Below, piece after piece: positions 14,359 to 37,029 of a DNA stretch of 64,000 nucleotides. This DNA is from Candidatus Latescibacterota bacterium (GTDB lineage Bacteria > Latescibacterota > UBA2968 > GCA-2709665): contig CAXXXF010000006.1 in assembly GCA_963667175.2 (NCBI GenBank), positions 160,001 to 224,000 on the forward strand, written 5' to 3'. Under the pieces are notes generated by a model that saw only the letters and a list, made by a program, of their open reading frames with translations, was not told the DNA's origin and searched no databases. The first letter of the stretch is position 1. The number at the start of each line of letters is the position of its first letter. Position numbers and translations under genes: made by a program.

Positions 14359-15695
14359 CAGAGTTCTCTCCAGGCCTCAACCAGTCGCGCGACGTCCGCT
14401 TCCGTCTTGGTTTCGGTGACGCATGTCAAGACGCACCGCTCCAATTCGGGGAAGAACCGTCCCAGATCGATGCCGCCGGCGATCCCCATTTCCCGCAGCG
14501 ACTGAAGCGCTTCACGGGCAGGACGGGTCGTTTCGATCACGAACTCGTTGAACGACGCGCCGGAGAACTTCAGGGATAGCCCATCGACGTCGCTCAGAGC
14601 GGACGCCGCTTCGTGACTGCGGTTCCAGTTCAGCGTTCCCACTTCCCGCAGGCCATTCGGACCCAGCGACGCAAGATAGACGGTCGCGGCTGTCGCGCAC
14701 AGCGTCTGATTCGTGCAGATATTCGAGGTCGCCCGTTCCCGGCGAATATGCTGTTCGCGCGTTTGAAGCGTCATCACGAACCCCCGCCTCCCGTCCGCGT
14801 CGGTCGTCTGACCGACCACCCGCCCGGGCATCCGTCGAATATGCTGTTCGCGCGTGGCGAACATCCCCACGTAAGGCCCCCCGTAGGACATCGGCAGACC
14901 CAGCGGCTGACCGTCGCCCACGACAATGTCCGCTCCAAAGTCTCCCGGCGGCCGGATCACCCCCAACGAAATCGGATTCACCGCCGCGACATACGCGGTC
15001 TTGTGATTCTGCAACAGGCTTCCCAATGCTTCCAGCGGTTCCAGCACGCCCACGAAATTCGGATTCTGCACGACGACCGCGGCGGTGTCGTCGTTCAACG
15101 CCGACGCCACCCGTTCCAGGTCGATCGTTCCCGTATCCGTCCAGGGTATCTCGACCAAATCCAATCCGATGCCGTGTACATACGTCTCGACGACACGCCG
15201 GTAGAAGGGGTGCAGGCTGCGCGGCAGCAGCACCCGGCCGCCGTCGTTGATCCTCACCGCCATCATCACCGCCTCGGCAAGGGCGGAGGCGCCGTCGTAC
15301 ATGGAGGCATTGGCCACCTCCATGCCGGTCAATTCGCAGACCATGGTCTGAAATTCGAAAATCGCCCGCAACGTACCCTGGCTCACCTCCGCCTGATACG
15401 GTGTATAGGCCGTGTAGAACTCGCTGCGCGAAATCATCGCATCCACGACGCTGGGCGTAAAGTGCTCGTAGGCGCCCCCGCCCACGAACGAAAGCGCGGG
15501 CGTCTGCTCCCGCGCCGATCGGGCGAGATCCTGCACCAGGCCCAGCGCCTCCATTTCGCTGATCCCGGCGGGCAGGTCCAGGGACCGCAGCCGAAGGGTT
15601 TCCGGGACGGGATCGAACAGCGCCGACGTCGAATCGATCCCGATCGTTTCCAGCATTTTCTGTATATCTTGATCCGTATGCGGAGTGTAATTCAC
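14358..15695 (-). CDS. gcvPA: Glycine dehydrogenase (decarboxylating) subunit 1
   Basis: FYTAYTPYQAEVSQG, NASMYDGA, TREQHIRRERATSNICTN; GTG start inferred. Confidence 0.97.
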   Translation of the reverse strand: MNYTPHTDQDIQKMLETIGIDSTSALFDPVPETLRLRSLDLPAGISEMEALGLVQDLARSAREQTPALSFVGGGAYEHFTPSVVDAMISRSEFYTAYTPYQAEVSQGTLRAIFEFQTMVCELTGMEVANASMYDGASALAEAVMMAVRINDGGRVLLPRSLHPFYRRVVETYVHGIGLDLVEIPWTDTGTIDLERVASALNDDTAAVVVQNPNFVGVLEPLEALGSLLQNHKTAYVAAVNPISLGVIRPPGDFGADIVVGDGQPLGLPMSYGGPYVGMFATREQHIRRMPGRVVGQTTDADGRRGFVMTLQTREQHIRRERATSNICTNQTLCATAATVYLASLGPNGLREVGTLNWNRSHEAASALSDVDGLSLKFSGASFNEFVIETTRPAREALQSLREMGIAGGIDLGRFFPELERCVLTCVTETKTEADVARLVEAWREL

Positions 15696-15732
15696 GGACA
15701 GGACCTCGAATATTGAAACGGTTCGGGGATTT

Positions 15733-16455
15733 CTACCTCTTCCGATACGTATAATCCAAAGCGTCTCCGGGTTGCCACCCCAGAATCCGCTTTGCTTTCT
15801 CGTTTGAAAACTGCCCGTGCGGGCGATCGCTGAAGATATTGAACGCCTCGCATCGAGACGGCAATACGTCCAGCTCAATGGTCAATCCGGACACGAACGC
15901 CGCGGCCGCGTCGCGCCACGATACCAGAAACGACCAGTCCCGGGCCGGCTCGGCCGACGCGTCGTGATCCCGGAAGATGTAGAACAGATAACACAACACG
16001 TAGACGTCGCTCTGCAACGTAAAGATCCGGCAGATTTCCTGGCCCAGCCCCTTTGACAGCGCATACAGATTCGTACCGGGCTTCGGCGGCACGTCCGGGC
16101 CGATTCCATAGTCCCACGCCTCATAGGGCTCGCCCTGTACCGTAAAATGCGGCCCCGTGTTGATGACGCGCCGGATTCCGTTCCCGACCGCCGCGCGCAT
16201 GACGTTGTAGCACCCCAGGGTGTTCACGTCGAACGCGGTTTTCCGATGCGGACGCAGGACCGACAGGTTGACGATCGCGTCCATCCCCTCGGCAGCCCGC
16301 ATCACGGCATCCGGATCCGCCACGTCCACGGGCATCATCTCGTGGGGCGTTTCGAACGGCTCGAGATCGGTGACTCGCAGGGCCACGCGCCCTTCAAGCG
16401 CCTTCACGACGTGCGGCCCCAGCATCCCGTTGCCGCCGTAAATCACGACTTTCAT
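15733..16455 (-). CDS. NAD(P)-dependent epimerase/dehydratase family protein (paralog 2)
   Basis: GGNGMLG and YALSK (YxxxK). Confidence 0.88.
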   Translation of the reverse strand: MKVVIYGGNGMLGPHVVKALEGRVALRVTDLEPFETPHEMMPVDVADPDAVMRAAEGMDAIVNLSVLRPHRKTAFDVNTLGCYNVMRAAVGNGIRRVINTGPHFTVQGEPYEAWDYGIGPDVPPKPGTNLYALSKGLGQEICRIFTLQSDVYVLCYLFYIFRDHDASAEPARDWSFLVSWRDAAAAFVSGLTIELDVLPSRCEAFNIFSDRPHGQFSNEKAKRILGWQPGDALDYTYRKR

Positions 16456-17212
16456 AACTGTCTCCCGCGTCGGCCGGGTCGGATTCCCCGGGATTTTTAA
16501 TGTAAGTGTACTCCAGTCCGTCCCGGGGTTGCCATCCCAGGACCCGCCCGGCCTTCCCGTTTGTAAAATGCCCGTGCGGTCGATCGCCGAGAATATCGAA
16601 CACCTCGCACCGCGACGGCAGACGCTCCAGCGGGATCTTCAGTCCCGGCAGGAACGCGGCCGCCGCATCCCGCCACGTCACGACAAAGGACCGGTCATGA
16701 ACCGGCTGCGAAGACGCATCGTGATCGCGAAAACTCCAGAAGAGGTAGCACAATACGTACACGTCGTAATTCGACGCGAATATCCGGCAGACTTCCTGGC
16801 CCAGGCCCTTGGACAACGCATACAGGTTCGTACCGGGCCTCGGGGGGATGTCCGGACCGATGTGATAGTCCCAGTCCACGTAGGATGGGCCCTGCAGGGT
16901 ATAGTGGGGCCCCGTGTTGATGACGCGCCGGATCCCGTGCCCGACCGCCGCGCGCATGACGTTGTAGCACCCCAGGGTGTTCACGTCGAACGCGACCTTT
17001 CGATGCGGTCTGAGGACCGACAGGTTGATGATCGCGTCCATCCGCTCGGCAGCCCGCATCACGGCGTCCGGGTCCGCAACGTCCACGGGCATCATCTCGT
17101 GGGGCGTTTCGAACGGATCCAGATCGGTGATCCGCAGGGCCGCGTGACCCTCCAGGGCCTTTACCACGTGGGGTCCCAGCATGCCGTTGCCGCCGTAGAT
17201 AACGACTTTCAT
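16394..17212 (-). CDS. NAD(P)-dependent epimerase/dehydratase family protein (paralog 1)
   Basis: Near-identical N-terminus to 15733..16455; GGNGMLG, YALSK. Confidence 0.88.
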   Translation of the reverse strand: MKVVIYGGNGMLGPHVVKALEGHAALRITDLDPFETPHEMMPVDVADPDAVMRAAERMDAIINLSVLRPHRKVAFDVNTLGCYNVMRAAVGHGIRRVINTGPHYTLQGPSYVDWDYHIGPDIPPRPGTNLYALSKGLGQEVCRIFASNYDVYVLCYLFWSFRDHDASSQPVHDRSFVVTWRDAAAAFLPGLKIPLERLPSRCEVFDILGDRPHGHFTNGKAGRVLGWQPRDGLEYTYIKNPGESDPADAGDSYESRDLRRQRDAGAARREGA

Positions 17213-17272
17213 AGCTGTCTCCACAGCCAGTCCGATCTGACCGGCTGATGTCCTGTCCCTGATATCAGTTGC

Positions 17273-17917
17273 CTAAATACCCAGCGCGTTTTTGGCCTGG
17301 TTAATTGGAAACCTGGCGTTCTCCTTCTCCGACTGCACGTGCAGGACCCGCCACATGGGCCCGTCTTTCTCAAGCGCCCCGTTAATGGCACGGACCGCGT
17401 CGCCAACGGTCAACGCCGTGTCGCCTTCGCCTCCCACGTCGCCGAACCGCAAACACGTCACGCGCACCGAATGTTCCCGCGCAAATTCCCGGCACGTGAA
17501 TTCACCCAGGTACTTCCCCAAAGGCGCCGCGTCCGTCGACGGCCTCGGCGCCCACTGCTCCGTCACGTTCCAGTTCGGATCGCAAGTCTCGAAAAGGCTC
17601 AGCGAACTGAGGTAGACCACGTGGCGGACGTTTTTCTCCCGTGCGGCAACCATCAGATTGTACGTGCAACGCGTCTGGAAGTCGATCTCGCGCTCGTCAC
17701 TCCTCCGATCATCGGGCAGCTCCGCGACGTGCACGATCGCATCCATCCCGTCCACCAGGGACTCCGCCTCGCCGTCGTGGCCCAACTCACAACGGACAAA
17801 GGCGACATCCGTCTCCACGTCCTCGAGGTCCGTCAACGTCACCTCGTGCTCCCGCGACAGGTCCTCCGCCAGGGCCCGAGCAAGCGCCGTCCCCGCCGAT
17901 GTAATCAGTACTTTCAT
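17273..17917 (-). CDS. Divergent NAD(P)-dependent epimerase/dehydratase-like protein
   Basis: MKVLIT start, DAIVHVA, VVYLSS; glycine motif and catalytic Tyr degenerate. Confidence 0.75.
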   Translation of the reverse strand: MKVLITSAGTALARALAEDLSREHEVTLTDLEDVETDVAFVRCELGHDGEAESLVDGMDAIVHVAELPDDRRSDEREIDFQTRCTYNLMVAAREKNVRHVVYLSSLSLFETCDPNWNVTEQWAPRPSTDAAPLGKYLGEFTCREFAREHSVRVTCLRFGDVGGEGDTALTVGDAVRAINGALEKDGPMWRVLHVQSEKENARFPINQAKNALGI

Positions 17918-18035
17918 GAATCATACTCCTGTATTTGGAAATTCAATCTTGCCGTGTGCAGGGATACCTATTTCGCCAATTAAGGCAGGCAGTTCGGCCG
18001 TAACGGCCGCATTCCACTCCCATGCAAATCGCGAG

Positions 18036-18359
18036 CTACACGGCAACCACGCGTCTTTGTCCCTCGCCGCTATCTGACGGAATGATACGGATCTCAATAT
18101 CGCGATTCAGGCGAGTTAGAAATGTCATTAACCGCTCAACGCTGTAATGATTGAATTTTCCCCTCTTCAGCCGGGATATTTCAGGCTGTTTCACCCCAAG
18201 GATTTCCGCCGCCTCAGCCTGGGTCAGATTCCGTTTTCCGATTATCTGAAAGACCTCAAAACCGAGTGTTGCCTTGAGAAACAACTCTTCCGCGTCTGGT
18301 AAGTCCAGATCCTGAAACACGTTTCCTGAACTTTTCTCGATCTTGATCCTATCGCTCAT
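18036..18359 (-). CDS. XRE/HTH_37 antitoxin (HigA-like)
   Basis: SSGNVF.DL, LTQAEAAEILGVKQPEISRL, S.ERL. Confidence 0.9.
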   Translation of the reverse strand: MSDRIKIEKSSGNVFQDLDLPDAEELFLKATLGFEVFQIIGKRNLTQAEAAEILGVKQPEISRLKRGKFNHYSVERLMTFLTRLNRDIEIRIIPSDSGEGQRRVVAV

Positions 18360-18717
18360 AGTCCGCCTCCAGCTCCAGCGCCTTTCTCAGGCGTCGTCTG
18401 ATCAGATCGACCTCTCTCAAGGGAGTCCTGGCTCCACGTGTTGATTTTTTCTGAAAACAATGCAATACATAAACCCTCGCGCCAATCTTTACTGCGTAGA
18501 CCGCGCGAAAAGCGTCCGTTTTATGATCCGCCCGAATCTCAAAGACGCCTGAGCCGACGCCCTTAAATGGTTTGGCCGCGGGAGACATGCTGCCCGCCTG
18601 CGCGATAAACAGAGCGTCACCGATATCCTTCTGAACCTGCGCCGGAAACTCCTTCAGCCTGGTTCTGGAGTCTCCAATCCAAAAGACCGTCCTCAAATTT
18701 CCTCGAGCACGAGACAT
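18349..18717 (-). CDS. RelE/Gp49-family toxin (HigB-like, upstream of its antitoxin)
   Basis: KPFKG.G.GV.EIR, FR.VY, YVLHCFQKKS. Confidence 0.9.
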   Translation of the reverse strand: MSRARGNLRTVFWIGDSRTRLKEFPAQVQKDIGDALFIAQAGSMSPAAKPFKGVGSGVFEIRADHKTDAFRAVYAVKIGARVYVLHCFQKKSTRGARTPLREVDLIRRRLRKALELEADYER

Positions 18718-18722
18718 TAAAT

Positions 18723-18751
18723 ATTATAACCAAATGGATATAAATTGTCAA
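18723..18751 (-). promoter_or_regulatory. Consensus sigma-70 promoter of the toxin-antitoxin operon
   Basis: TTGACA-17 nt-TATAAT on the minus strand, 5 nt before the toxin ATG. Confidence 0.85.
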
Positions 18752-18851
18752 GCGATGCGTAAATTGCACGGTCCAGGCGGCCCGTGCATCAGAGACGAGA
18801 GGTGCCCGGCCGAACAAACAGAATCCGGACGTTCGATCGGGCATCGCGGGT

Positions 18852-19370
18852 TCAAAGGTACTGATAATACGTTACCTGGGGCTGCGCAATGTTGAATCCC
18901 ACTTTCTCGTAGGCACGGCGGGCGGGGGCGTGGCCCTCGTCCAACCCGGTCCCCACGGCGGCGAACCGAAGGCCTTCAGATCGAAAAAGGTCCAATGCGT
19001 ACCGATACATCGCCGTACCGATCCCCTTTCCCTGTATTTCGAGGGCCACCGCGTTGTTCGTGATTCTACCCAGCGACTTCCCCCGATCGATCGAAAACGT
19101 CAGAAACGCGACCACCCTCGCCGTCTCCACCCTCTCAATAACCCGGAACCAGTCGGGATGTCGATTCCAGTGCCCGTGCACCGCAGCCGTCTTCTCCGCC
19201 TCCCAGTTCTCACACAACACGGCGTGCATTTCCCGGCCCATGATTCCGGCGGTACTGTCGTGAATCCGCTGCCACGCCTGCCTGGCGATCTCGCCCACCC
19301 GATCCAGGTCTGCCGGACCTGCGTGTCGGATTTGAAACCCCGGGGCGAGTTCGGCGTTCGGACGGCTCAT
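18852..19370 (-). CDS. GNAT family N-acetyltransferase
   Basis: AV..E.QGKGIG acetyl-CoA motif, PARRAYEKVGF. Confidence 0.88.
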   Translation of the reverse strand: MSRPNAELAPGFQIRHAGPADLDRVGEIARQAWQRIHDSTAGIMGREMHAVLCENWEAEKTAAVHGHWNRHPDWFRVIERVETARVVAFLTFSIDRGKSLGRITNNAVALEIQGKGIGTAMYRYALDLFRSEGLRFAAVGTGLDEGHAPARRAYEKVGFNIAQPQVTYYQYL

Positions 19371-19552
19371 CAGACCTCCTGGCGGTCCTTGATTTCCCTG
19401 CGGAAAATTCCGCTCGTCTCCACTGGACAAATACACGGCATTCCGGAGCCGGCCTCGCCGTTCCTCAAATACAAAGGCGTTGACTTTCACCGGCGAGGCG
19501 ATATCTTGAAATCGATTCCAATATCCCGTAACGTACGAAAGGAGCGCTTCAC

Positions 19553-20317
19553 ATGAAACTGGGAATTGTCACGTATCAGATCGCGAAAGACTGGGATGTA
19601 CCAACATTGATCGATATGTGCCGAACAACGGGACTCCAGGGCGTCGAACTTCGCACCACCCACGCCCACGGCGTGGAACCCGACCTCGCGCCGGACGAAC
19701 GTGCCGCTGTCAAAGGCCGGTTCGAAGACGCGGGCATTGATATCGTCGGACTCGGAAGCGTCTACGAATACCACGCCCCGGATCCCGAAACCGTGCGTCA
19801 GAACATCGACGGTACCATTGAATATGCGAGACTCGCCGCCGACCTGGGTTGCCCGGGCGTTAAGGTGCGTCCAAACGGATTGCAGACGGACAGAGGCGTT
19901 CCTGAAGAGCGGACACTCGAGCAGATCGGGCTGGCCTTAAGAGAATGCGGAGAGGCCGCCGAGGGTCTGGGTGTTCAGATCCGGGTTGAAGTCCACGGTC
20001 GGGACACCTGCGAACCCCGGCGCATGCGCCGCATTATGGACCATGCCGACCACGAGAACGTCTGGATCTGCTGGAACTCGAACCCCCAGGACATCGTCGA
20101 CGGTTCGGTCAGGGCGGGTTTCAACCTCCTGAAACACCGGCTCGGGCTCGTGCACATCAACGAACTGCACAAGTCCGAATACCCGTGGCGGGAACTCTTC
20201 GGTCTCCTGAAAGCCGAAGGCTACGACGGATACACGCTCGCGGAAATCCCCGACAGCCCGGAACCCGAACGCCTGTTGCGCTACTATCGGGCGCTCTGGC
20301 AGGCACTGATGGCCTGA
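19553..20317 (+). CDS. Sugar phosphate isomerase/epimerase family TIM-barrel protein
   Basis: G.QGVELR, VEVH, VHI, GYDG...AE; AAAGGAG RBS. Confidence 0.85.
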   Translation: MKLGIVTYQIAKDWDVPTLIDMCRTTGLQGVELRTTHAHGVEPDLAPDERAAVKGRFEDAGIDIVGLGSVYEYHAPDPETVRQNIDGTIEYARLAADLGCPGVKVRPNGLQTDRGVPEERTLEQIGLALRECGEAAEGLGVQIRVEVHGRDTCEPRRMRRIMDHADHENVWICWNSNPQDIVDGSVRAGFNLLKHRLGLVHINELHKSEYPWRELFGLLKAEGYDGYTLAEIPDSPEPERLLRYYRALWQALMA

Positions 20318-20395
20318 TCCGGCGTACTGCATCGAACTGCACAGGTGCGTGGCGGTACCATGCGTATTGAAGTTCGTGCCACGGAACTTCCACAT

Positions 20396-21703
20396 TCATG
20401 CCCAAACCTCCCCCGTTTTCAGCCCGAAGTTGATGCGGTTGTCATTCAGAATTGATGCCGCACGTCCTGGCGAAACATCGACTACTGACCCATCCGACTT
20501 AGTCAGCGTCCATGCTTCTGTGGTCAGGTTTCGCAGGCCGAAAAGATTTCGAACTTGTGAATTCTGAACGACTTCCGCGATCGGCGTGTCGTCATCTCGG
20601 GCCTGACCGACGTGGTAGCCGAACAGTCGGGTGGTGCGATTGAGCAGGATGATTTCGTCGTCAATTTTGATGCGCGGTGGGAGTACCAGCGGCTTCTTGC
20701 ATGACCAGCAGCGCTTGCCGCCAGCGGGCGCAGCGACCGCAGGCTCATAGAAATTCTCGGCGCCGCATCCGCACCGCCAGATGCTGTTGATGGCACTGGC
20801 AAGAGCCTTCCGCCACTCCGACTCACGCACGCGCCTGGGCGGATAGCGCAATCCGTCCGTGAACGATCGCCGGAACAAATCGGCCAGAAATCCCGGGTAC
20901 ATGTCGCGAAAAGCGATGGGGTTGTCGTGAATCCCGGGAACAGGACGGTTGGAATCGTCCTTCGTATCCCAGATGTAGAGCGGATTAGATCCGTATAGTC
21001 GCTCGTAGGCAGGCACATCAAGACAGCGTATGTTCGCTTCAAGTTGACCGTCGAGGGGATGACCGCCGTACAAAAGAAAAAACAGAAGTACCGCCAGCGA
21101 GTAGAGATCGGTATCGGCAGACGGAGCTTGCTCTCGACGAACCACCTCTGGGGCCATAAAACGCTGGGTACCCATCACACTGCCCGTTTCGGCGCCCGTA
21201 ATGTCAACGTTGTCGTTGTCACAAATGCGGATATCGCCGGTCTTCGGATCAAAGAACACATTGGTAAAGGAAATGTCCCGATAGCAGAGGCCGTGGCTGT
21301 GGAGGCGGAGAAAGCCATCCGCGAGTTTTCTGCCAGCCGTGAGCAATGCACGCATTGATGGGTGGATCCGCCGTGCCATGAAATCTTCCACGCCCCGGAA
21401 GTTGGGCTCTCGAAGGGCCATGATGTAGCCGTACCGTTCTGACTGGATATCTTTTACCATCGCCATCGGCCACAGGAAGTGCGGTGCAGGCGAGCCTTTT
21501 TCAACCAACCGCTCAAGTACCGCTTTTTGTTCCACGGTAGACGTATTCCGGTGATATATCTTCACCGCGACGGCCTCTCCGCCGTCAGTGGCTTTCCAGA
21601 CCTCGCCTTGTCCCCCCTGACCGAGCAGGCTATTGGCAGTGATGCGCGTTCCGTCTGTAATTTTCAGTAGTTCTGGCTTTCGCATTTGCGACTTCTCCAT
21701 CAT
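20396..21703 (-). CDS. Ser/Thr protein kinase of a TerY-P-type triad, with zinc ribbon and beta-rich (FHA-like) C-terminus
   Basis: LGQGGQGEV, VAVK, YRDIS..N, ICDND, FMAPE, TDLYSLA; CxCG...CxxC. Confidence 0.9.
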   Translation of the reverse strand: MMEKSQMRKPELLKITDGTRITANSLLGQGGQGEVWKATDGGEAVAVKIYHRNTSTVEQKAVLERLVEKGSPAPHFLWPMAMVKDIQSERYGYIMALREPNFRGVEDFMARRIHPSMRALLTAGRKLADGFLRLHSHGLCYRDISFTNVFFDPKTGDIRICDNDNVDITGAETGSVMGTQRFMAPEVVRREQAPSADTDLYSLAVLLFFLLYGGHPLDGQLEANIRCLDVPAYERLYGSNPLYIWDTKDDSNRPVPGIHDNPIAFRDMYPGFLADLFRRSFTDGLRYPPRRVRESEWRKALASAINSIWRCGCGAENFYEPAVAAPAGGKRCWSCKKPLVLPPRIKIDDEIILLNRTTRLFGYHVGQARDDDTPIAEVVQNSQVRNLFGLRNLTTEAWTLTKSDGSVVDVSPGRAASILNDNRINFGLKTGEVWA

Positions 21704-22704
21704 TTCAAGATTGCTTTAGCCTTTACTGTTCCCACAACCCTGCAGAGGGCATCTCGGATCCATCGTACGATCCAGTTGTTCGATGTTGCCTCCAGATTCC
21801 CCGACGACGACTCGTCTGATTCCATCTCCGCTGGCCTCTCCATCGAAGTCCGATTCGGCTCATTTTGCGGCGAATTTTCCGACGATATTGTGGAAGAACC
21901 CGCAACAGTCTGGCTCGTTGATGGCGGCCAGTATATTAGCGCAAGGCCGATGTCGTCACCAGCTCCCTGAGCGGTGGTCTGCTCAAGGAAACCCCGCAAG
22001 TTCAAGGCGGAGACCCCATTCTTGCGTATAAGGTTGAGATAATCGGGGCCAATCTGCCTGAACGCGGCGTCCGTCGGGTATGATTTGCTGTATCCATCGG
22101 TCGAAAGCACGAGGAGTGTCTCTCCAACAGGTGCACGTAGGGCGCGCATACGAAGCGAGTACTCTGCCTCCGGAAGACACAGACTGGATGTTTCGTCGGC
22201 GAACACCGCAGGGTCGGCCGGTAGCAGGACTTCGGGTTTTCCATCCTTGGCGACGAGCAGAACATCGCCGTCTCCCAGTTGTCCAACCAACAGGAAGTCC
22301 GGCGTGGCTAAGGCGACTATGAGTGTCGATCCATAATCCGAGAGCGGCGATTCGTCGTCGCCAGCCTTGGCGCGTACTTGCGCTTTCCATTCCCGGACGA
22401 TATGCATGCGGAGGGGATGTTCGGCGCACTTCCGTACCTGCGTCAAATCTGAAGCGCATTCACCGAGATCCTCGGCGAACCGTACGAGCGAGGTAAGCGC
22501 CACCTGGACTGCGAGTCGGGCACCGACGTCGGCGTGTTTGCTCGTGCCATGGCCGTCAGCGACAGCCGCGACTACGGAGTCGGCGACCGCACAGACCCTC
22601 ACCTCATCCTGGCAGGGTTTACCGGACCGCATGTGGTTCGCACCGATGACACGCTCAAAGGCGAATGCGGGTCGTCGGCCGGTTTCTCGACTACCAGACG
22701 TCAT
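21700..22704 (-). CDS. PP2C-family protein phosphatase (TerY-associated)
   Basis: G..H......CQD, VADGHG, LGDG, LSTDG, GDD; ATGA overlap with the kinase. Confidence 0.9.
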   Translation of the reverse strand: MTSGSRETGRRPAFAFERVIGANHMRSGKPCQDEVRVCAVADSVVAAVADGHGTSKHADVGARLAVQVALTSLVRFAEDLGECASDLTQVRKCAEHPLRMHIVREWKAQVRAKAGDDESPLSDYGSTLIVALATPDFLLVGQLGDGDVLLVAKDGKPEVLLPADPAVFADETSSLCLPEAEYSLRMRALRAPVGETLLVLSTDGYSKSYPTDAAFRQIGPDYLNLIRKNGVSALNLRGFLEQTTAQGAGDDIGLALIYWPPSTSQTVAGSSTISSENSPQNEPNRTSMERPAEMESDESSSGNLEATSNNWIVRWIRDALCRVVGTVKAKAILK

Positions 22705-23407
22705 TGGCGTCTGCCAGGTCTGGCGCCGGAGGCGGAGGCAACGGCACATTGACGCCGGCGGGAGCAGCCGACGTCTGGCTCGCTGGAGCGGACGCGGCCT
22801 GCAACACTGCGGTGGACGCCCAACGGATATAATTGACCAGATCTTCTGCGTTGTCGGCCTGCAACGGTTGAATCTCTGCGTGACCGATGAAACGCTGGAG
22901 GACATTGTTATCCGCATCGCCAATTGCGATTGCAAGACGCACGGCCTTCTTGCCCCAGGGTTCGGCCATCAATGCTTCTAGCCCTTCATTGAAGTTATCC
23001 GTAGGTTGTCCGTCACTGATAAGCACCAGAACGGGAGGCAACGCACGCTCAGGCATCGGCGGCGTCTTGAGCGCGTCATCTGTGACCAGAGACAGGGCAC
23101 GCCCCATAGAGGTCATGCCATTGGCCGAAAGGTCAGTCCACTCAAACTCATCAACCGCTGTCGGCTGTGAAACGTGCCACTGGGCGCCGGATGAAAACTT
23201 GATCGCCCGCACAAGGACCTCCGCGTTCGGATTGCCGTGTGCGACCTCTCGCATATGCGGGATGGCCTCCCGGATCGCTTGATTGAGTGCTTGAATCTTG
23301 CGGCCCGCCATTGAGGACGAGCAATCCGCGATGAAGATGAAATGGAGGGGCCTGTTTGCGATCGGTCCGCCCGGGAGTTTGTGCTCCATTGACTCTTCTT
23401 GTTCCAT
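22691..23407 (-). CDS. TerY-like von Willebrand factor A domain protein
   Basis: DCSSSM MIDAS motif, A.G.T.MG.AL, LISDGQPTD; GGAGGAG RBS. Confidence 0.92.
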   Translation of the reverse strand: MEQEESMEHKLPGGPIANRPLHFIFIADCSSSMAGRKIQALNQAIREAIPHMREVAHGNPNAEVLVRAIKFSSGAQWHVSQPTAVDEFEWTDLSANGMTSMGRALSLVTDDALKTPPMPERALPPVLVLISDGQPTDNFNEGLEALMAEPWGKKAVRLAIAIGDADNNVLQRFIGHAEIQPLQADNAEDLVNYIRWASTAVLQAASAPASQTSAAPAGVNVPLPPPPAPDLADANDVW

Positions 23408-23447
23408 AGATTCTCCTCCGTGTTGAAGTTGCTTTGACCTGTTACGC

Positions 23448-25694
23448 CTATGAAGGGTTGACGACAGCCACGAGTTCGGCCTGAAGTCGTTCCGCGACGG
23501 GCTTCGCTGGCTCGAGTTGATCCCAGGTGCGGATGGCGAGGAAGCGCTCTCCGCGAAATTCGTAGAGTTCCCCTATCTCTGGAGGCGCCTCGGACGGGAT
23601 CGGCGGATGCAAACTCACTTCGCATGTTGACGGGGCCGGAAGTCGCTGCGGCCTATCGAAACGGAATTCCTCCGATGCGACACGGTTGAAATTTTCAATC
23701 TCCCTGGAAAGGCGGGTAGCATCGGCCTGAAGGTCGGCAATCGCCTTCTTCGCCTCGGTCAAGCGAGCAGATACATCGTCGAGTTCGGACAGGGGAGGCA
23801 ACCAATCTGATAGGCTCTCTCGGTCCTGCTTGTTGCGGGCGACCATCCGTTCTGCGTCCCTCACGCGCTTATACGCTCTCTTTCGTGGTCCCTTGGACCG
23901 CTGGCCCTTATGCTCTCTCTTGAGAGACTTCCAGAGTGTGTGCGATTCCTCCAGCTTTGCCTCAAGATCAGCCCGCTGCTTGTCCAAAAAAGCCTTCCGC
24001 TCCTGGCGTTTGGTTGCCACAACGTTGTCAAGAGTAGCCTGCCCTTCCCGTCGTCTATCCCCCGCCGCGCCCTGGGCTTCCTCGTTTGCCGCTAGCTTCT
24101 GTCGTGCCTCACCCAACTTGGCGTTGGCGTCATTGACACGCTGTTCCCATACGCCTCGCTGATCTTCCCTCGCCTTGGCATCCTCTGCATCCTGCTGCTG
24201 ATTAAAGGCGTTACGCCGCATCCCATCCACGCGACCGACGATCCGGACGAGGCGTTCCATGCGCTCCTCGGCTTGATCCGATATCCCGCTTGGACGCGAC
24301 TCACCGATTTCGTCAAGTTCGTCTCTGAGTTGCTCTCGTTCCGAGGCCAGGTTCCAATCCCGAGACGGGAGCCATTGGCGAAGTTTGTTCAACAGCCCTT
24401 CTTGACTTTCAAGTTCGTTAAGCTCGTGGCGGAGAGTAACCACCGTGCGTGACGCCCACTCATCCACTGCTGTCCAGCTACGTACGATCTCGGCAGTGTG
24501 GGCGTCCGGCGGCAAGGCAGCCGGTACTCGCTGCCATCGGATGGTCGCTTCCAGGGCGAGAGGTGGAATATCTGGTAAGCGAGCGGGCCGAAGAGAGTCG
24601 AAACTCAGCAACGGCGCGTCCAAATCGCCGGCGTCCAACAGGACGGTCTGGACGACCTCGGCTGGCTGAGTCGCCCGGTCCAGCAACACTCTGCCTTTGA
24701 CAGCGTCGAGCCGTCGATCAGGATGGAACTCCCAATCCGGTTGTTTCGCCATCTGGTCGAGAGCGTGGATGAGATTTATCGCCTCGCCACGGGGCCATTC
24801 GACCTGGAGTGCGATCGGTGCTTCCACGAGATCCATAACCATACGCTGATATGTAACCGTCGTCCTCGGAAGGCCGGTATCAACCCACAGGACCCGGTGG
24901 CCTCGTTGGCAGAGTGCCTTGGGAAGATCGAGATCTACTGGGCCATCTCTCCCGCCGTTTGCCCAGGCGCCAGTGGGAGGAACAAACAGCACTCGGGCAC
25001 GTCCGGGGTCTACCGCCAACGGTGAAATCCTGATTTCGGCATCGGGAACCGGATCGTCGATATTTCCGTCCAGTCGGAGCCGGCCAGCCGCGAGCGAGAC
25101 GTCGGTTCCGGGAGGGTCAAATGGTGCTGCCAGCGGCTCTTGGAAGGAGACTTCACCACTGATGTCCGGCAGGGCTTCGCGCTCTGCATGGAACCAGAAC
25201 AGCACTCGAAATGCCTCAAACAGTGACCGTGCCAAGGCTCCCTCGACGGGAATCACCCATCTTTGATGCTCTGCGGTCGGCCCTACGACAAGTCGTCCTT
25301 CGCGTCCCTTATCAACGACGAGCCAGTCCGCAGGTGTGCGAGGACCCAAGCGCGTGAGGACCCGGTCACCCATACCCGCCGTTCTTTGAACCATTGCAGT
25401 ATCGGCCTCAAGAGCACGGTCCCCATAGATATAAAGTCGGCAGTGCACAGGAAGAGATTGTAAGACAGCGTTAAGCAATTTGTGCGAGGTTACTGTCGAA
25501 CCTATCGCGAGGACTACGATGTGAGCATCCTTCACGAGCGGCTGCACGTCATTGAAGGCGTAGGAGGGGTTCAAGTCGGTCCACGGAAGGTCAATATTCG
25601 CACCATTGCCCTGTTCCCAGAGCGGAAGCTCTTTCTCCCTCCGGTCAATCCGTTCCTCGTGTACTTCGGATTGAATCGGCCCGCTACGCATCAT
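23448..25694 (-). CDS. Uncharacterised 748-aa protein: alpha/beta N-terminus (possible degenerate PLD-like fold) and long coiled coil
   Basis: Long ORF, ATGA-coupled to the upstream gene; charged heptad-like segment in the C-terminal half. Confidence 0.85.
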   Translation of the reverse strand: MMRSGPIQSEVHEERIDRREKELPLWEQGNGANIDLPWTDLNPSYAFNDVQPLVKDAHIVVLAIGSTVTSHKLLNAVLQSLPVHCRLYIYGDRALEADTAMVQRTAGMGDRVLTRLGPRTPADWLVVDKGREGRLVVGPTAEHQRWVIPVEGALARSLFEAFRVLFWFHAEREALPDISGEVSFQEPLAAPFDPPGTDVSLAAGRLRLDGNIDDPVPDAEIRISPLAVDPGRARVLFVPPTGAWANGGRDGPVDLDLPKALCQRGHRVLWVDTGLPRTTVTYQRMVMDLVEAPIALQVEWPRGEAINLIHALDQMAKQPDWEFHPDRRLDAVKGRVLLDRATQPAEVVQTVLLDAGDLDAPLLSFDSLRPARLPDIPPLALEATIRWQRVPAALPPDAHTAEIVRSWTAVDEWASRTVVTLRHELNELESQEGLLNKLRQWLPSRDWNLASEREQLRDELDEIGESRPSGISDQAEERMERLVRIVGRVDGMRRNAFNQQQDAEDAKAREDQRGVWEQRVNDANAKLGEARQKLAANEEAQGAAGDRRREGQATLDNVVATKRQERKAFLDKQRADLEAKLEESHTLWKSLKREHKGQRSKGPRKRAYKRVRDAERMVARNKQDRESLSDWLPPLSELDDVSARLTEAKKAIADLQADATRLSREIENFNRVASEEFRFDRPQRLPAPSTCEVSLHPPIPSEAPPEIGELYEFRGERFLAIRTWDQLEPAKPVAERLQAELVAVVNPS

Positions 25695-26791
25695 GCCTCC
25701 ATTCCCAAATCGGCACCCGCGGAGAGCAGCCATCTCGTCCGGGCGGCGAGGAGTCGACCATTCACCTCAGAGAGTACTGACGGATCGGGCGCATCTCCAG
25801 CCCATTTTGCCAGTGGGGTATCTTCGATAATGTCTGACCACTCCGACTGATAGGCATCGGGATCCATATATATGTCCTCAGCCTCGGCTTGAGCAACGAG
25901 AATAGCTGTTGCCCAGGTGCGAGCGTCACCCTTTGTTGCCGGGCCGACCGGTATGTCTCGGACCTCGACCGTATCGAACGGGCCGAAATCTCTGACCTGC
26001 TTATTCTTGTAACTCCTGGATCGAAGGAATGACTCGCGTCCGCCCTGCCCGACCTTTCCGTCATACGCTATGGCGAGGCGACCCACTTGCTCGTCCCATT
26101 GCGGTTCCCAGTCTGCGCAGAAATCGACCAACTTGCTCGGCTCCACCGACTCAGGTGAGGATCGGAACTTGCCGCGCCGCCCCCAGTCTCCGCTCACTTG
26201 CCCTTCAATCGTCCACTTGTTGCTTCCCGATCCAAGGTCTATATCCCACTGCAAATTCCCTGTGGTCATCTCTTCGACGCGGCAAACCGGACTTTGGCCT
26301 CTTTGTGCCGGGAACTTCGCAATGTTGAATCGCTTATCTTGGAAAATCGACGTGAATACCCGGTTGTGATTGGGTGAGAACCACGACGGAAGCTGCTCGT
26401 GGTTGCTGTAGTCGCGATCCCTCCTATCGCCAGGGGTGCGTTTGAAATCAAGGACATAACTTTCAAAGAGCGGATGGAATGCCACGAGCAGACGATATAC
26501 GCCCTGCTCCCGGGCAGGCGCCTCGCCCGACGACGCACAACGGCGTCCGAGAGCAGTCAGTACTCCGTTTCGATCAACAAGCTGAATATAGCGTAAGTGG
26601 CGCAACAGGTTTGCCCTTGCCCGACGCGACAGTCCCGGCAGGACAGTCTCAAACACGTCCTCTTCGAGAGCGCCATGGCCCCGAGCGGCGACGCATAAGA
26701 CCTGAAGATCCGGTCTCTTTTCCCAGACGGCGAGTTCTGCAAACACCGCAATGTTCCGGATCTCAACTTCTGCTTCGAGGCGGGCATTCAT
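25691..26791 (-). CDS. Uncharacterised 366-aa protein, possible N-terminal winged helix
   Basis: ATGA overlaps on both sides; LL..L...QLV....VLTALG resembles a wHTH wing. Confidence 0.85.
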   Translation of the reverse strand: MNARLEAEVEIRNIAVFAELAVWEKRPDLQVLCVAARGHGALEEDVFETVLPGLSRRARANLLRHLRYIQLVDRNGVLTALGRRCASSGEAPAREQGVYRLLVAFHPLFESYVLDFKRTPGDRRDRDYSNHEQLPSWFSPNHNRVFTSIFQDKRFNIAKFPAQRGQSPVCRVEEMTTGNLQWDIDLGSGSNKWTIEGQVSGDWGRRGKFRSSPESVEPSKLVDFCADWEPQWDEQVGRLAIAYDGKVGQGGRESFLRSRSYKNKQVRDFGPFDTVEVRDIPVGPATKGDARTWATAILVAQAEAEDIYMDPDAYQSEWSDIIEDTPLAKWAGDAPDPSVLSEVNGRLLAARTRWLLSAGADLGMEA

Positions 26792-29700
26792 CGCACACTT
26801 CCAAGCTCAAATAACGGTGTAGCATCTGCAAGCGCATTGAGTTCTTCGGATGGGCAATCCTCGGCGAAGTACTTCCGATGACCAAAGACGACGAGCAAGA
26901 ACCGGGCTCGGGTGATCCCCACGTTGAGCCGATTGGGGCTGTCCATGTGACCGGGCCGAGAGGTGTTCCTGAGACTCAGCAACACAAAGTCAGCTTCTCG
27001 ACCCTGGAATCGGTCAACTGTCGCGCAAGCAATCGTCGTGTTGGGAAGCGCGAAACGCGTCTCCGCACGTGCCTTTCCGGTGAGTTGTCGGAGCATGTTT
27101 CGCGTACCCAGTTCCTGCCGGTTATAGAACGAGAGACAGGCTACCGTCCAGTACTTGCCATCGGTTCTCTGGTGAGATTCGGCGTAATCCCGCCAGGCCA
27201 CCAACCAACGACGCATGGCTTCGATCTCGGCCTGGTTGATACCGCGCTCATCATGGCCGCGTACGTCTGTCCACACTCGTCGTGCCGGCGCCCTGAGCGC
27301 GAAGGACCAACCGTCTCGTTTGTCGCGTTCGTCAAGGGTATTTGCGTCTCTTAATGCTACTCCCTCGTAGAATTGGTCTCGAGGTAATCTCGAAATGTCC
27401 GGATGCATTCGGTGTTGAAATTCAAGTATTACTGCCCGCTCCTTCCATACGTCCTGCGGAATCGCCTCGGTGAGCGCGCTCCGGCAGCGGACGCGACGGT
27501 CGCTCCTGCCTATCCGGAAAGACTCAATCGCGCTGCGTACCCCTACGTCGCGGATTGCGTCAATGGCTTGAGGGACCCATTTAGAGTAAGGATCCACAGC
27601 TGGCATAAGGCTATCAATCTCGTCCTGTCGTCGTTCACGCTGTCCATCGTCTCGAGCACAGGCAAGCTGATGAACCCTTCCAAGCCGCCACGATACCTGC
27701 TTGGCCCAGGATTCCTCGCGCAGGAAATCCCGCTGGCGACTGGCCAACTCACGAGCCGCGCGGAATTGACGCCTCTGCTCCCAAATGGGTTTCGAAAAAC
27801 TGCCGCGGCGGTCAAGCCATCTTGCGAATTGGAACGCACGGGCTGAATCTAGATCCCAGTCGCGCAGTGCAAGTCCATCCGGCGGCAGATAAGGCGCAAC
27901 GCGATCTCGCAATTCAGGTGGAAATAGTATCCAGTCGGCTGCCAGTAAATGCAGCGCTACGGGTTGTCCGGCCTCAATATCTGTAATGGACACTTCATTG
28001 TCCGTGGGATTGCCTTGGACAACGCGCACGATCTCAGGCATGCGGTCGCTGTGCGTTACCCGAACCTCGATTTCCGCGCACAGCGCGTTGAGTACGTCGT
28101 CTCCCTCTTCGATCAACCATCTGACCCTTCTAAACCCGGCCTCCGGGCGCTGCAGCCGGAACAGGATCAGCAACGCCACCTGGTGGGCGTCGGAGAGTTT
28201 TGCTTCGTTTTCATCGCTGACCTCGGCAATGCTGGCTTCAAGATCCTTGGGTTCTGAAAAAGGCGGAAGTTGTCGCACGTCGCCGACCACAATCCACTTG
28301 CTGGCAAGCTGGGCGGGGACCAGAAACTCCTGGAACGTCGTCTTGCTCGCTTCATCAATGATCAGGACGTCAAAGTAAGGCCAACGCGGCCCTGTATCGT
28401 TCTCGCGCCTATGGCTTAACCGACGTATGTAGGGGTGCGCAAGGATACCCGTGGATGTGCCACAGGTGAGATTTACGGAAGAAAGAATGGTCGCTTCTGC
28501 GACCCGCTCCAAGTTGAAATCGTCGTCCCGGTCCGCGAAGACTCCGGCAGAACGCCAGGTTTCCGTCAATGCCGCGATTCGTTCATCGATCTGCACGTCG
28601 CGGATGGTTTGGTCCACCCGGTCCGCAAGCCCGATACGGACCGCCTCGACTTGCTCAAATTTGCCGACGAGGCGCTCCAGCACATTGTCCACGGCCACGT
28701 GTGTCGTGGAGCAGAGCAACACATTTAATCCCTGGTCGATGAACTGAAGCACCAATTCACAGATGGCGTGCGTCTTGCCCGATCCGGGCGGTCCTTCGAG
28801 AAACGCGAAGTCCGGTGTGCCAAGGGCTTTTTCTACGAACTCCCGTTGTTGGATAGTTCCCGACCAATGCTCGTCGCCAAGCAAATACCAGCGGGAAACG
28901 GACTCTGGTTGGCACCTCGGCCAACGAACCCTGTTGGGCGCTTCGCAAAGTCTGAGTAGGGCTTGATGGTGGGGTAGCGGGCTATCCCTTAGGCTAAATA
29001 TCGCCTGCCGCTGGCGTTGTAGGTTCGAAATGCTGGAAGGGATGAATAATGTCGATTCCTCGGCCGGGAGCCGCTCTAACTCCAGCTGGTAGTTGTCGCG
29101 ACGGAAATTAAATACCTCGAAGGCGTCATTGCGGTTGTTACCCCGTCTCGTGCGGACCTCGCGAACGCCCTCTTCCATATAGGCCGTTCGGATGTCCAGT
29201 GCCGCCTCGCTATCCACTTCTTCAGGGGGAAGGAGTTGAATCCAGACCCCGCGCCGTCGCCGGTTACCCCCCTCGTCTTCCGACCAGGCCCATCGGACAC
29301 CGTTGTCGGCGATGAAAAAGCCTTGATCTGGCAGTTTCTCCAGCGTCAGGTCTCGTTGACCGTTCCAGGGAATCTTCTCCCTGCCGACACGGAGACACGT
29401 GGCGCCCTCATGAGGGTCGGCCACCTGATGGGGTAGTTCGGCGCCATGCTTGTCTTCAAGGACAACATGGTCACAGCCTTTAATGACCAGGAAAATACGG
29501 TCAGCTTGTTCCGGGCGTTGGTACAGATGTGCGACCGTGCCGTCGCGACGCCGTGCGACCAACGTATCTGGCCAGATCGGATCTGTGGGAGTTAATGTGC
29601 AGGGACTGCCTTTCCAGAACACCTGTTCATCGGGATCCACCTCACTGTCAAGCACGAGGAGCAAACCGCTGGGGACTCGCTCAACGCGCTTGGGGACTAT

Positions 29701-29997
29701 CGGACGGTACTGTTCGCCGACGAACAACGGCATGTCCGGCACGTCGTCTGACCAACCTTCAAGGCGATACCAGAAGCCCTCTGCCTCCATGACCAGGAGC
29801 GAATCCATAGGGGTGAGCCGCAACGGATACTCACGCGGGACAGGCTCCCACCGCACTGACCTCGACTCGCGCTTCCTGGCGGCATCAAGCGCAGACTTCA
29901 GGTATGCAGTGTAGGGCCACAGGCTACCGTGAGCCTGGTTTGCCACGGCACGGGCGCGCTTCGGATGAACGCAGGCGGTGAAGTAAAGCGGTTTCAT
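26788..29997 (-). CDS. SF1 helicase, Upf1/DNA2/NAM7 family (AAA_11/AAA_12)
   Basis: GPPGSGKT, STTHVAVDN, IIDEAS, VGD..QL, QHRMHP, TVDRFQGRE, NRLNVGITRA. Confidence 0.95.
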   Translation of the reverse strand: MKPLYFTACVHPKRARAVANQAHGSLWPYTAYLKSALDAARKRESRSVRWEPVPREYPLRLTPMDSLLVMEAEGFWYRLEGWSDDVPDMPLFVGEQYRPIVPKRVERVPSGLLLVLDSEVDPDEQVFWKGSPCTLTPTDPIWPDTLVARRRDGTVAHLYQRPEQADRIFLVIKGCDHVVLEDKHGAELPHQVADPHEGATCLRVGREKIPWNGQRDLTLEKLPDQGFFIADNGVRWAWSEDEGGNRRRRGVWIQLLPPEEVDSEAALDIRTAYMEEGVREVRTRRGNNRNDAFEVFNFRRDNYQLELERLPAEESTLFIPSSISNLQRQRQAIFSLRDSPLPHHQALLRLCEAPNRVRWPRCQPESVSRWYLLGDEHWSGTIQQREFVEKALGTPDFAFLEGPPGSGKTHAICELVLQFIDQGLNVLLCSTTHVAVDNVLERLVGKFEQVEAVRIGLADRVDQTIRDVQIDERIAALTETWRSAGVFADRDDDFNLERVAEATILSSVNLTCGTSTGILAHPYIRRLSHRRENDTGPRWPYFDVLIIDEASKTTFQEFLVPAQLASKWIVVGDVRQLPPFSEPKDLEASIAEVSDENEAKLSDAHQVALLILFRLQRPEAGFRRVRWLIEEGDDVLNALCAEIEVRVTHSDRMPEIVRVVQGNPTDNEVSITDIEAGQPVALHLLAADWILFPPELRDRVAPYLPPDGLALRDWDLDSARAFQFARWLDRRGSFSKPIWEQRRQFRAARELASRQRDFLREESWAKQVSWRLGRVHQLACARDDGQRERRQDEIDSLMPAVDPYSKWVPQAIDAIRDVGVRSAIESFRIGRSDRRVRCRSALTEAIPQDVWKERAVILEFQHRMHPDISRLPRDQFYEGVALRDANTLDERDKRDGWSFALRAPARRVWTDVRGHDERGINQAEIEAMRRWLVAWRDYAESHQRTDGKYWTVACLSFYNRQELGTRNMLRQLTGKARAETRFALPNTTIACATVDRFQGREADFVLLSLRNTSRPGHMDSPNRLNVGITRARFLLVVFGHRKYFAEDCPSEELNALADATPLFELGSVR

Positions 29998-30516
29998 TCT
30001 TCTCAGGCTTCCAAGCGGCGTACTTTCATCCCATTAAGGAGCGATTCATGGATCATCTCGTCTTTCCTGAACCGGGCAATGAACCACTGTGATAGGTCCC
30101 ATCGATTCGAAGGGGGAGACACCCGCGCTCCTAGGCGTCGCAAAACGCGACGGTCGACCCCGAACCTGCGTCTAATCTCCGGCGATCAATATCCGGCAAT
30201 AGAATTCCATCGCCTTCCTGATCCGGCAATTTGCCAAATGCATCCAGAGTGGATGCCAGTACCGCGGAGCGCAGCAATCCCCTGAAGGTCTCCGCGATGC
30301 CTGAACAACACAACTCCAGGCAGCCATGGCGGCATAGCCACCGGATCTGCTCGAAATCTTGCCGGAACTTGAACGAAGCGACAGGGACGGCCGGTTGGAC
30401 TTCATCTCGGCGTGTCGATATGGCGGACGAGAATACCGGACCGCGCCGGAATGCCGTCGAACGGTTAAAAACTGCCGAGAGCGGCGCGTGTTACCGTCCC
30501 GGCAATCGGAGTTTCC

Positions 30517-36824: not shown

Positions 36825-37029
36825 CCTGGGAAGTGGGGATGCGCACGACGAAAACAGGAAAAAACCGGACTTTCACCGTCGCGGTGGTTTCCTGACGCTG
36901 TGTCGTATCAGCAGTTGGAAGAAGAACCACGATACGTTCACTGTAATAGGTTCAGTGCCCGTTCTGGTTGGCTGATTGGAGGTCCCAATCACGACGATGG
37001 TTGCGCATTCAGTCTCAGTCCGCGCCCGG

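Follow-up and report, generated by a model that had tools for sequence, protein, structure and literature searches.

A six-gene helicase and TerY-P cassette with a pseudo-PLD protein in a Latescibacterota genome, a candidate relative of anti-phage systems

A stretch of 64,000 nucleotides (nt) from a Candidatus Latescibacterota bacterium (contig CAXXXF010000006.1, positions 160,001 to 224,000; referred to as the window) carries six co-oriented genes on its minus strand at positions 20396-29997. They encode a UPF1-like helicase, two proteins of 366 and 748 amino acids (aa), and a TerY-P triad composed of a vWA protein, a PP2C phosphatase and a Ser/Thr kinase. The locus raises the question whether these genes belong to one system, how this system is related to described ones, and which of its products would be the effector. 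The original prediction had proposed a defence system without a name, in which the triad controls a three-protein helicase effector.

A conserved six-gene unit

The layout given by the original prediction agrees throughout with the coordinates in the open reading frame (ORF) listing of the window. The first gene encodes the helicase (26788-29997, 1069 aa) and is followed by the genes for the 366-aa protein (25691-26791), here called the adaptor, the 748-aa protein (23448-25694), the TerY-like vWA protein (22691-23407, 238 aa), the PP2C-type Ser/Thr phosphatase (21700-22704, 334 aa) and the Ser/Thr kinase (20396-21703, 435 aa). Most of the genes overlap, by 4 nt at 26788-26791, 25691-25694 and 21700-21703 and by 14 nt between vWA and PP2C (22691-22704), and the single intergenic gap has a length of 40 nt (23408-23447). 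The ORF of the third gene (23448-25733) comprises 761 aa; translation from the ATG at 25694, in overlap with the stop codon of the preceding gene, gives 748 aa. The PP2C ORF is listed as 21700-22935 and is reduced to 334 aa with the ATG at 22704 as its start.

For the analysis of gene order, the 366-aa protein was used as the sole query, which resulted in 103 relatives of approximately 365 aa, all without annotation. An alignment of 27 of these led to 12 loci on contigs drawn from a set with one genome per species, and the six window proteins were mapped onto them by tblastn. The same gene order was found in all 12 loci, of which 10 were complete, while the two that are cut by contig ends showed the expected subset of genes. 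According to the record titles, the loci belong to Gammaproteobacteria (4), Myxococcota/Polyangia (4), Latescibacterota (2), Rickettsiales (1) and Planctomycetota (1). The 710-aa gene upstream of the operon was not conserved in them. In the class of the window, a full-length helicase was identified in 6 of 132 genomes, including the window's own, with an identity of approximately 79-85% in the other five. Three of these five were fetched and contained all six genes in the same order; the other two had apparently been counted already. In total, the order is kept in all 15 other loci, 13 of them complete and 2 truncated at contig ends. Since loci picked only by the 366-aa protein carry the six genes in order, the arrangement is beyond chance and is a conserved unit, not an artefact, and the single unit assumed by the original prediction was thus recovered.

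The distribution of the cassette is patchy. Within the window's genus, a full-length helicase is present in only 1 of the 14 genomes other than its own, and in a second class the helicase N-terminal profile clearly matched 1 of 401 genomes, with one additional marginal match.

Compared to the copy from the same genus (L051), the ratio of nonsynonymous to synonymous substitution rates (dN/dS) ranged between 0.10 and 0.44 across all six genes in this one genome pair, and all six are therefore under purifying selection. Helicase identity between the two copies drops to 70-76% at residues 100-300 and 600-750. Positive selection on these accessory regions was considered and dismissed, as dN/dS there was 0.38-0.44 and gave no sign of it in this pair. 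Synonymous divergence from L051 amounted to 0.33 in the helicase gene, 0.11 in the two middle genes and 0.04 in the triad. This roughly eightfold fall along the operon, seen in a single genome pair, suggests recombination inside the cassette.

The proteins of the cassette

Pfam assigned the families AAA_11/AAA_12, VWA, PP2C_2 and Pkinase to four of the six proteins, whereas the 366-aa and 748-aa proteins had no match in Pfam, NCBIfam or PADLOC. The helicase is a UPF1/MkoA/CnuH-like member of superfamily 1 (SF1), with Pfam E-values of 8.5e-29 (AAA_11) and 1e-25 (AAA_12). Its relation to Mokosh-type helicases, to which the original prediction had already pointed, was borne out by the PADLOC MkoA profiles PDLC03920 (4.6e-76) and PDLC03921 (1.6e-47), the match beginning at profile position 521 and being confined to the helicase portion. 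In 8 of 8 intact orthologues, the sequences of Walker A, Walker B, motif III and motifs V/VI are unchanged or almost unchanged. An insertion of approximately 270 residues lies between motif III and RecA2. The N-terminal extension of approximately 243 residues is specific to the triad-linked form, as the helicases of related operons with a phospholipase D (PLD) gene, described below, align only from about residue 244. A search of the ESM Atlas with the N-terminus gave weak leads only (score <0.9), to the 1B domains of UPF1/SMUBP-2.

The adaptor was modeled with AlphaFold2 (AF2) from the 27-sequence alignment with a pLDDT (predicted local distance difference test) of 89. The model contains an N-terminal elongated winged helix-turn-helix (wHTH) domain (approximately residues 1-120) and a beta-rich and helical C-terminal part. 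Residues 20-90 or so were aligned by VIA-align with MarR/PadR wHTH domains over 61-67 residues (Z 8.0-8.6, root-mean-square deviation approximately 2 A), a modest match, given that such Z values lie in the range which the tool rates as common. The match covers the whole small domain, on either side of which the model has a long beta hairpin (strands 2-25 and 90-118). The modeled N-terminus fits the elongated wHTH of the CnuE type known from CoCoNuT systems.

No matching fold was obtained for the C-terminal half of the adaptor in searches made with the whole model, and a new fold is not claimed for it. Foldseek searches of the whole model against PDB and BFVD returned nothing at E<=0.001, the top rows being long, poor alignments to viral glycoproteins. 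The sole VIA-align row spanning the C-terminal half was a lectin beta-sandwich (Z 4.8), with the rest of the list filled by wHTH domains. No usable match was found for this half in the ESM Atlas, and the family profile had 0 matches to PDB sequences. A HEPN domain was not detected in the protein by Pfam, NCBIfam or PADLOC, searches that did not include a separate one with the C-terminal fold, and the C-terminal part of the model is unlike the helical HEPN bundle. The invariant residues of this half are chiefly Trp, Gly, Pro and Phe, and by its sequence it looks like a binding module more than an enzyme.

The adaptor superfamily comprises 709 representative clusters at E<=1e-3, which are without annotation in any library searched. 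Judged by the listed lengths, about one quarter of the best 150 adaptor relatives are 508-590 aa long and possess an extra C-terminal domain of approximately 190 residues. These forms (P0098, P0100, P0226 and others) share the conserved stretches 'CDRYVRG' and 'PHDRYL ... MSNSPL'. The extra domain had no Pfam or PDB sequence match, and a PLD-like reading of it was dropped for want of support from either source.

The 748-aa protein was modeled from 29 family members with a pLDDT of 87.4. It is divided into an alpha/beta N-domain (to approximately residue 400) with a two-lobed PLD fold at about 31-345, an antiparallel coiled coil at about 402-673 and a small, conserved C-terminal alpha/beta domain at about 709-743. 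The coiled coil, approximately 270 residues in length, includes one helix of 123 residues that folds back on itself. In Foldseek searches of PDB, the N-domain matched PLD 7e0m best (E 1.5e-6, prob 1.00). The matches as a whole had E-values between 1.5e-6 and 8e-4 (prob 1.00) and also included PLD3/PLD4 exonucleases, vaccinia F13, phosphatidylserine synthase, FAM83 DUF1669, Zucchini and NgoAVII-R; for many PLD, PLD3/4, F13 and phosphatidylserine synthase entries, E was 1.5e-6 to 1e-4. VIA-align aligned the N-domain with two-lobed PLD enzymes at Z values of 13.0-14.4 over 242-285 residues (best 14.4 over 270 residues, followed by 13.6, 13.6 and 13.6), compared to approximately 10-11.6 for single-lobe PLD members. 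For FAM83 DUF1669 (5lzk, 4urj, 5qhm), Foldseek E-values of 2e-4 to 4e-4 and Z values of 9.2-9.7 were obtained. According to the model, the two-lobed alpha/beta PLD fold is thus present in the protein. A search of PDB sequences with the family profile returned coiled-coil noise only.

The positions of the canonical HxK motifs were examined by hhalign comparison with two true PLD proteins from related operons. The first H-A-K maps onto P121-A122-D123, and the Asn of the T-A-N motif in the first of these PLD proteins onto P139; these mappings have low probability (Prob 1% and 17%), yet they are consistent with one another and with the strand order. Among the 29 aligned sequences, the replacing residues are highly conserved (P121 29/29, A122 28/29, D123 27/29, W124 29/29). 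In lobe 2 the equivalent stretch is G-x-R-V-V-W-x-D, with G-x-R at the canonical site, and a His at position 266 is found in only 11 of 29 sequences. When all 103 family members were searched with the regular expression HxKxxxxD, none had the motif at the canonical sites. It occurs elsewhere in 14 of 103, at about residue 323 on a different strand (in one shorter protein at about 259), and in 2 more near residue 27. From the model and these alignments, both canonical HxK motifs are judged to be lost from the PLD fold of the third gene across the family, and the product is called a pseudo-PLD protein here. A conserved motif also follows the long helix of each lobe, W167-F-H169-A-x-R172-E173 in lobe 1 and W321-x-F323-H324-P-x-R327-R in lobe 2. 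In the same alignment, H169 is present in 28/29, R172 in 26/29, H324 in 25/29 and R327 in 26/29 sequences.

All three triad proteins retain their catalytic or ligand-binding motifs. The vWA protein (Pfam VWA, 1.7e-07) is the most conserved of the six, with 75-90% identity across phyla, and has a complete metal-ion-dependent adhesion site (MIDAS), whose residues D28, S30, S32, T99 and D132 are invariant in 12/12 sequences. Its conserved tail is rich in Ser, Thr and Pro and ends with D-V-W. The phosphatase (PP2C_2, 1.2e-42) keeps the motifs DGHG, GDGD, TDGY and GDD in 11 of 11 intact orthologues. In the kinase (Pkinase, 2.9e-22), VA(V/I)K, YRD..N, DND and APE as well as all four Cys of a CxC...CxxC zinc ribbon were found in 12/12 sequences. 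PADLOC, which had been suggested as a check of the locus, gave PD-T4-6, mad6 and the kinase part of MkoA (profile positions 17-222) as the best kinase matches; none of its models matches the vWA or PP2C protein.

Following the zinc ribbon, the kinase contains a further conserved domain of approximately 90 residues (about 342-435; window 20399-20680) with the invariant positions H65, G90, N93, W99, D105, G106, N123, F127 and G128 in alignment numbering. A profile of the kinase C-terminus had no match among PDB sequences. An FHA-like reading of this domain, an impression gained from its motifs, was set aside for lack of tool support.

Relatives and possible mode of action

Among the relatives of the cassette are operons in which a PLD gene with HxKxxxxD motifs occupies the third position. 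The helicase tblastn search detected plasmid operons with the order helicase (843/908 aa), hypothetical protein (365/369 aa), PLD (506/510 aa) and RtcR-like CARF-AAA-HTH protein. Seven such sister loci were collected (L013, L014, L031, L032, L033, L039 and L040), in which a helicase of 843-942 aa is followed by a 366-like protein and a PLD. The RtcR-like gene follows the PLD in 5/7. One of them, L031 (8697-14046; contig C6, approximately 597.5-602 kb), is a second, paralogous system in the window's genome, outside the window. It encodes an 878-aa MkoA-like helicase, a 380-aa adaptor homologue and a 538-aa PLD with two HAKxxxxD motifs, with a 1474-aa N6_Mtase/AAA_16 protein downstream and an NgoMIV-type restriction-modification pair upstream. 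Similar sister operons occur in two other genomes of the window's class, and a broad adaptor-family profile added a further two from another class, of which 400 genomes were searched.

Between sister operons and cassette, the helicase cores are homologous (33-46% identity), the third place is taken by a PLD-fold gene in both, and the middle proteins are homologous as well (hhalign Prob 98.9, E 3e-17, 332 columns; Prob 94.9, E 4e-8). Unlike the cassette, they have a helicase without the first 243 residues or so and a PLD that retains HxKxxxxD (two motifs in 6/7, one motif in the seventh) and has no coiled coil. The triad was found in 0/7. Sister operons adjoin restriction-modification, CARF and CRISPR genes.

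The Mokosh system consists of an Upf1-like helicase and a PLD nuclease, with a kinase fused to the helicase in type I, and its defence requires both the helicase ATP site and the PLD active site (Millman et al., 2022, bioRxiv 10.1101/2022.05.11.491447). The cassette resembles type I in its Ser/Thr kinase, its COG1112/Upf1-like helicase and its PLD fold. However, in MkoA kinase and helicase are encoded by one gene, whereas the cassette kinase is a separate gene within the triad and an additional wHTH adaptor gene is present. The active-site residues needed by the MkoB PLD are missing from the cassette PLD fold, which also carries a coiled coil.

The other group for comparison is CoCoNuT II/III-A, known from a computational description (Bell, Sahakyan, Makarova, Wolf and Koonin, eLife 2024, PMC11090510). 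In these systems, the UPF1-like helicase is encoded by cnuH and has N-terminal domains similar to SmpB and RelE, and the downstream cnuE encodes a protein with an elongated wHTH, a coiled coil and HEPN. McrB-like and McrC-like genes are present, and usually also a TerY-P triad whose kinase ends with a zinc ribbon. Downstream of helicases of this family, the typical partner is a wHTH protein to which effectors of various kinds, PLD among them, are fused (Bell et al., 2024). Correspondingly, the SF1 helicase of the cassette is UPF1-like and has an N-terminal extension and a large insertion, the gene downstream of it opens with an elongated wHTH, coiled coils occur and the genes overlap tightly. 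Its triad includes a zinc-ribbon kinase, as does the non-core but frequent triad of CoCoNuTs. The HEPN domain of CnuE was not detected in the 366-aa wHTH protein, and the 748-aa protein, with pseudo-PLD, coiled coil and C-terminal domain, is an extra component for which the parts of the CoCoNuT description available to us contain no counterpart.

The McrBC components were searched for as well. Pfam analysis of 82 flanking ORFs from 11 loci revealed no McrB-like GTPase (CnuB) in the operon or adjacent to it, the nearest candidate being a partial AAA_5 approximately 5.7 kb upstream in L012, and none was found among 28 ORFs in the window at 10-48 kb. McrC/DUF2357 (CnuC) was not found in the flanks of the loci examined or among the same window ORFs. 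A whole-genome search with PF09823 likewise gave no match, but control genomes gave none either.

The combination of UPF1-like helicase, wHTH protein and TerY-P with zinc-ribbon kinase is therefore already published for CoCoNuT II/III-A (in the description of Bell et al., 2024, as far as available), and the absence of a named system claimed by the original prediction holds in part: no PADLOC or NCBIfam model spans the six-gene set, whereas the link between helicase, wHTH and triad had been described. What appears to be undescribed is the form without McrB, McrC and HEPN and with a separate pseudo-PLD coiled-coil protein. No description of this form was found in the literature covered, in which the CoCoNuT paper and its preprint alone were of relevance, and to which the supplements of Bell et al. 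and Anantharaman 2012 (a study that, according to Bell et al., touched on these operons), either of which might list such loci, did not belong.

Stand-alone TerY-P-like triads were reported to defend against phage (Gao 2020, as cited by Bell et al., 2024), and TerY-P triads were linked to stress and metal responses (Anantharaman 2012, as cited in PMC11090510). They share vWA, PP2C and Ser/Thr kinase with the cassette. Their kinase, however, carries an OB fold in place of the zinc ribbon and unmatched domain found here, and they act alone, whereas the triad of the cassette was embedded in the six-gene unit at every locus examined. The closest plasmid triads, from Methylomonas (L015, 13989-16892) and Prevotella (L016), have the order kinase, vWA and PP2C and lack the helicase module. 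In L015, the kinase and the vWA protein are 45% and 67% identical to those of the window. The partners of the L016 triad (13405-27799) are a TerY-C metal-binding protein, a formylglycine-generating-enzyme-like protein, a 3'-5' exonuclease and an FtsK-like translocase.

The cassette is probably a relative of known anti-phage systems with a function in defence. Whether it is a sister both of the Mokosh-like operons with helicase, wHTH and PLD (and in part CARF) and of the cnuH-cnuE-TerY-P part of CoCoNuTs is a placement that we consider about as probable as its opposite.

A possible mode of action can be outlined as follows. The products of the first three genes, namely helicase, wHTH adaptor and pseudo-PLD coiled-coil protein, would assemble into a complex monitoring RNA or single-stranded nucleic acid, in which the former PLD nuclease has become a subunit for binding or scaffolding. 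Two elements of the sister systems, their CARF regulator and their nuclease output, would both be replaced by the TerY-P triad. Upon sensing, the zinc-ribbon kinase, as the likeliest effector, would phosphorylate members of the complex or cellular or phage targets, and PP2C would reset the state. A segment that is acidic or phosphorylated could be docked by the vWA MIDAS. As the outcome, phosphorylation, and not PLD cleavage, would arrest growth or block infection. Taken as a whole, this explanation, a defence cassette with a pseudo-PLD scaffold complex and kinase output, is given an even chance.

A complex of the helicase N-terminus (1-243), the 748-aa C-terminus (residues 676-748) and the vWA protein was also predicted; the score of 0.00 compared to a mark of 0.32, in a run without controls, is uninformative either way. 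In a more specific version, which is regarded as unlikely, a Mokosh-like nuclease system was rewired: the PLD became a dead nucleic-acid-binding scaffold on a coiled-coil arm, and the acquired TerY-P kinase is the effector, recruited or released by an interaction between pseudo-PLD and vWA when the helicase meets phage RNA. The FAM83 DUF1669 domain, a PLD fold without catalytic function whose Pfam family is named SACK1 'scaffolding anchor of CK1', may serve as an analogy. It is eukaryotic and single-lobed, no homology is claimed, and a pseudo-PLD that anchors a kinase in the same manner is a lead, not evidence.

Several observations weigh against a defence cassette with kinase output. The role of the kinase is read from the loss of the HKD motifs, its effector activity being a prediction, and the loss of catalysis itself is deduced from the AF2 model and low-probability hhalign mappings and not from a residue-level superposition. 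The paired F-H-x-x-R motifs of the two lobes may represent another binding or active site. No copy of the cassette was found in the viral contigs searched, and several loci have only housekeeping neighbors, a defence-island setting being seen in just some. Frames are broken at some loci: the helicase and 748-aa genes are split between frames in L006, the helicase and PP2C genes in L007, where a masked run also lies inside the vWA gene, and the helicase gene in L008, while the 748-aa gene of L053 aligns as two pieces with a possible frame break. These breaks may be assembly errors or decay.

The main competing explanation retains the roles given by the original prediction, with the helicase, 366-aa and 748-aa proteins as the effector and the triad as a sensor or switch only; the PLD fold would cut via non-canonical residues such as alternative His/Arg pairs. 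It is favored by the well-supported fold (Foldseek, VIA-align), by the H169/R172 and H324/R327 motifs repeated at equivalent places in both lobes and by the effector role of PLD in sister systems and Mokosh. It is opposed by the family-wide replacement of the canonical His/Lys pairs and the lobe-1 Asn by residues incapable of PLD chemistry (P121, D123, P139), and we regard it as improbable. The six-gene unit postulated by the original prediction stands, but its three-protein effector contains no recognisable catalytic component, with P-A-D and G-x-R at the HxK sites. Because the PLD fold of the 748-aa protein is without canonical HxK, the triad may either be the controller of the helicase module or its output.

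A module outside defence, for instance an accessory RNA surveillance or stress signalling unit acting in ribosome or RNA quality control under Ser/Thr phosphorylation, would agree with the work of UPF1-like helicases in RNA surveillance, with the stress and metal responses mentioned above and with the housekeeping surroundings of several loci. It is considered rather improbable, as the cassette occurs in a scattered manner in several phyla, its flanks changing from locus to locus, and as the nearest experimentally studied relatives are defence systems, in addition to the neighborhood of the sister operons. The helicase with N-terminal extension, the wHTH protein and the zinc-ribbon-kinase TerY-P, together with the frame breaks, could also mark a decaying, non-working remnant of a CoCoNuT II/III-A after loss of McrB and McrC. 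This is very unlikely in view of the same McrBC-less gene content in 15/15 loci from several phyla, dN/dS values below 1 for all six genes, intact catalytic motifs and the 748-aa protein, which in the CoCoNuT description, as far as available, has no counterpart. Finally, the helicase module and the triad could be two independent systems placed side by side by chance, a case which the original prediction had itself named as speaking against one system. Plasmid triads without helicase and with another gene order would suit this view, but it is refuted by the co-occurrence of overlapping or close genes in fixed order at all of these loci, and its probability is next to nil.

If the preferred explanation of a pseudo-PLD scaffold with kinase output held in its rewired form, it would provide a bacterial parallel to the kinase anchors with a pseudo-PLD (FAM83) in eukaryotes and document the exchange of an effector inside one defence family. 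If the cassette is anti-phage, active PLD with CARF on the one hand and dead PLD with triad on the other would represent a natural experiment in effector swap, for which the active-PLD sister operon in the same genome makes it a good candidate for experiment. It would also be a compact system for the role of TerY-P beside UPF1-like helicases, without the McrBC layer of CoCoNuTs, a question standing since TerY-P and CoCoNuTs were described computationally. Moreover, a prokaryotic pseudo-PLD with a conserved surface would be useful for finding what such domains bind.

Genomic surroundings of the cassette

The flanking genes vary between loci. Neighbors of a defence or mobile type, seen at several of them, were a DUF4011/Hhe-type helicase, SNF2 and PLD in L009, DUF499 and a serine recombinase in L007, SocA/Panacea and AAA_22/AAA_35 in L003, a NERD-kinase in L004, NOV_C/Sacsin and ABC-3C CTD2 in L012, and DUF790 and an XPB-like helicase in L002. 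That the cassette is a self-contained, horizontally moving unit of the defence type is held to be a balanced proposition.

In the window, the region 5' of the helicase start (29998-30516 on the minus strand, 519 nt) is the sole long non-coding gap on the 5' side of the operon and is presumed to bear the promoter. A scan of this region for the sigma-70 consensus identified no site, and the promoter was therefore not located. At the other side, a candidate seventh gene (19937-20395, minus strand) was rejected as a shadow ORF. It lies inside the convergent plus-strand gene 19553-20317, which encodes an AP_endonuc_2 TIM barrel according to Pfam, and the operon end was thus set to 20396.

Three further elements are located within approximately 15 kb of the cassette. 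A gene for a Gp49/HigB-like toxin (PF05973, 4.8e-23) and an overlapping HTH_37 antitoxin-like gene (8.1e-25) form a pair at 18036-18717 on the minus strand, approximately 1.7 kb past the 3' end of the operon. On the opposite side, a gene at 35277-36824 encodes an AAA-ATPase_like protein with PDDEXK_9 (PD-(D/E)XK). It is followed at 38-45 kb by a low-GC stretch, with a GC content of 0.46-0.49 at 38-44 kb, which contains N6_N4 DNA methylase genes at 39432-40253 and 43871-44815, a gene for a HATPase_c_3 protein at 41248-42756 and several unassigned ORFs. The region 35277-44815 looks like a foreign restriction or defence island.

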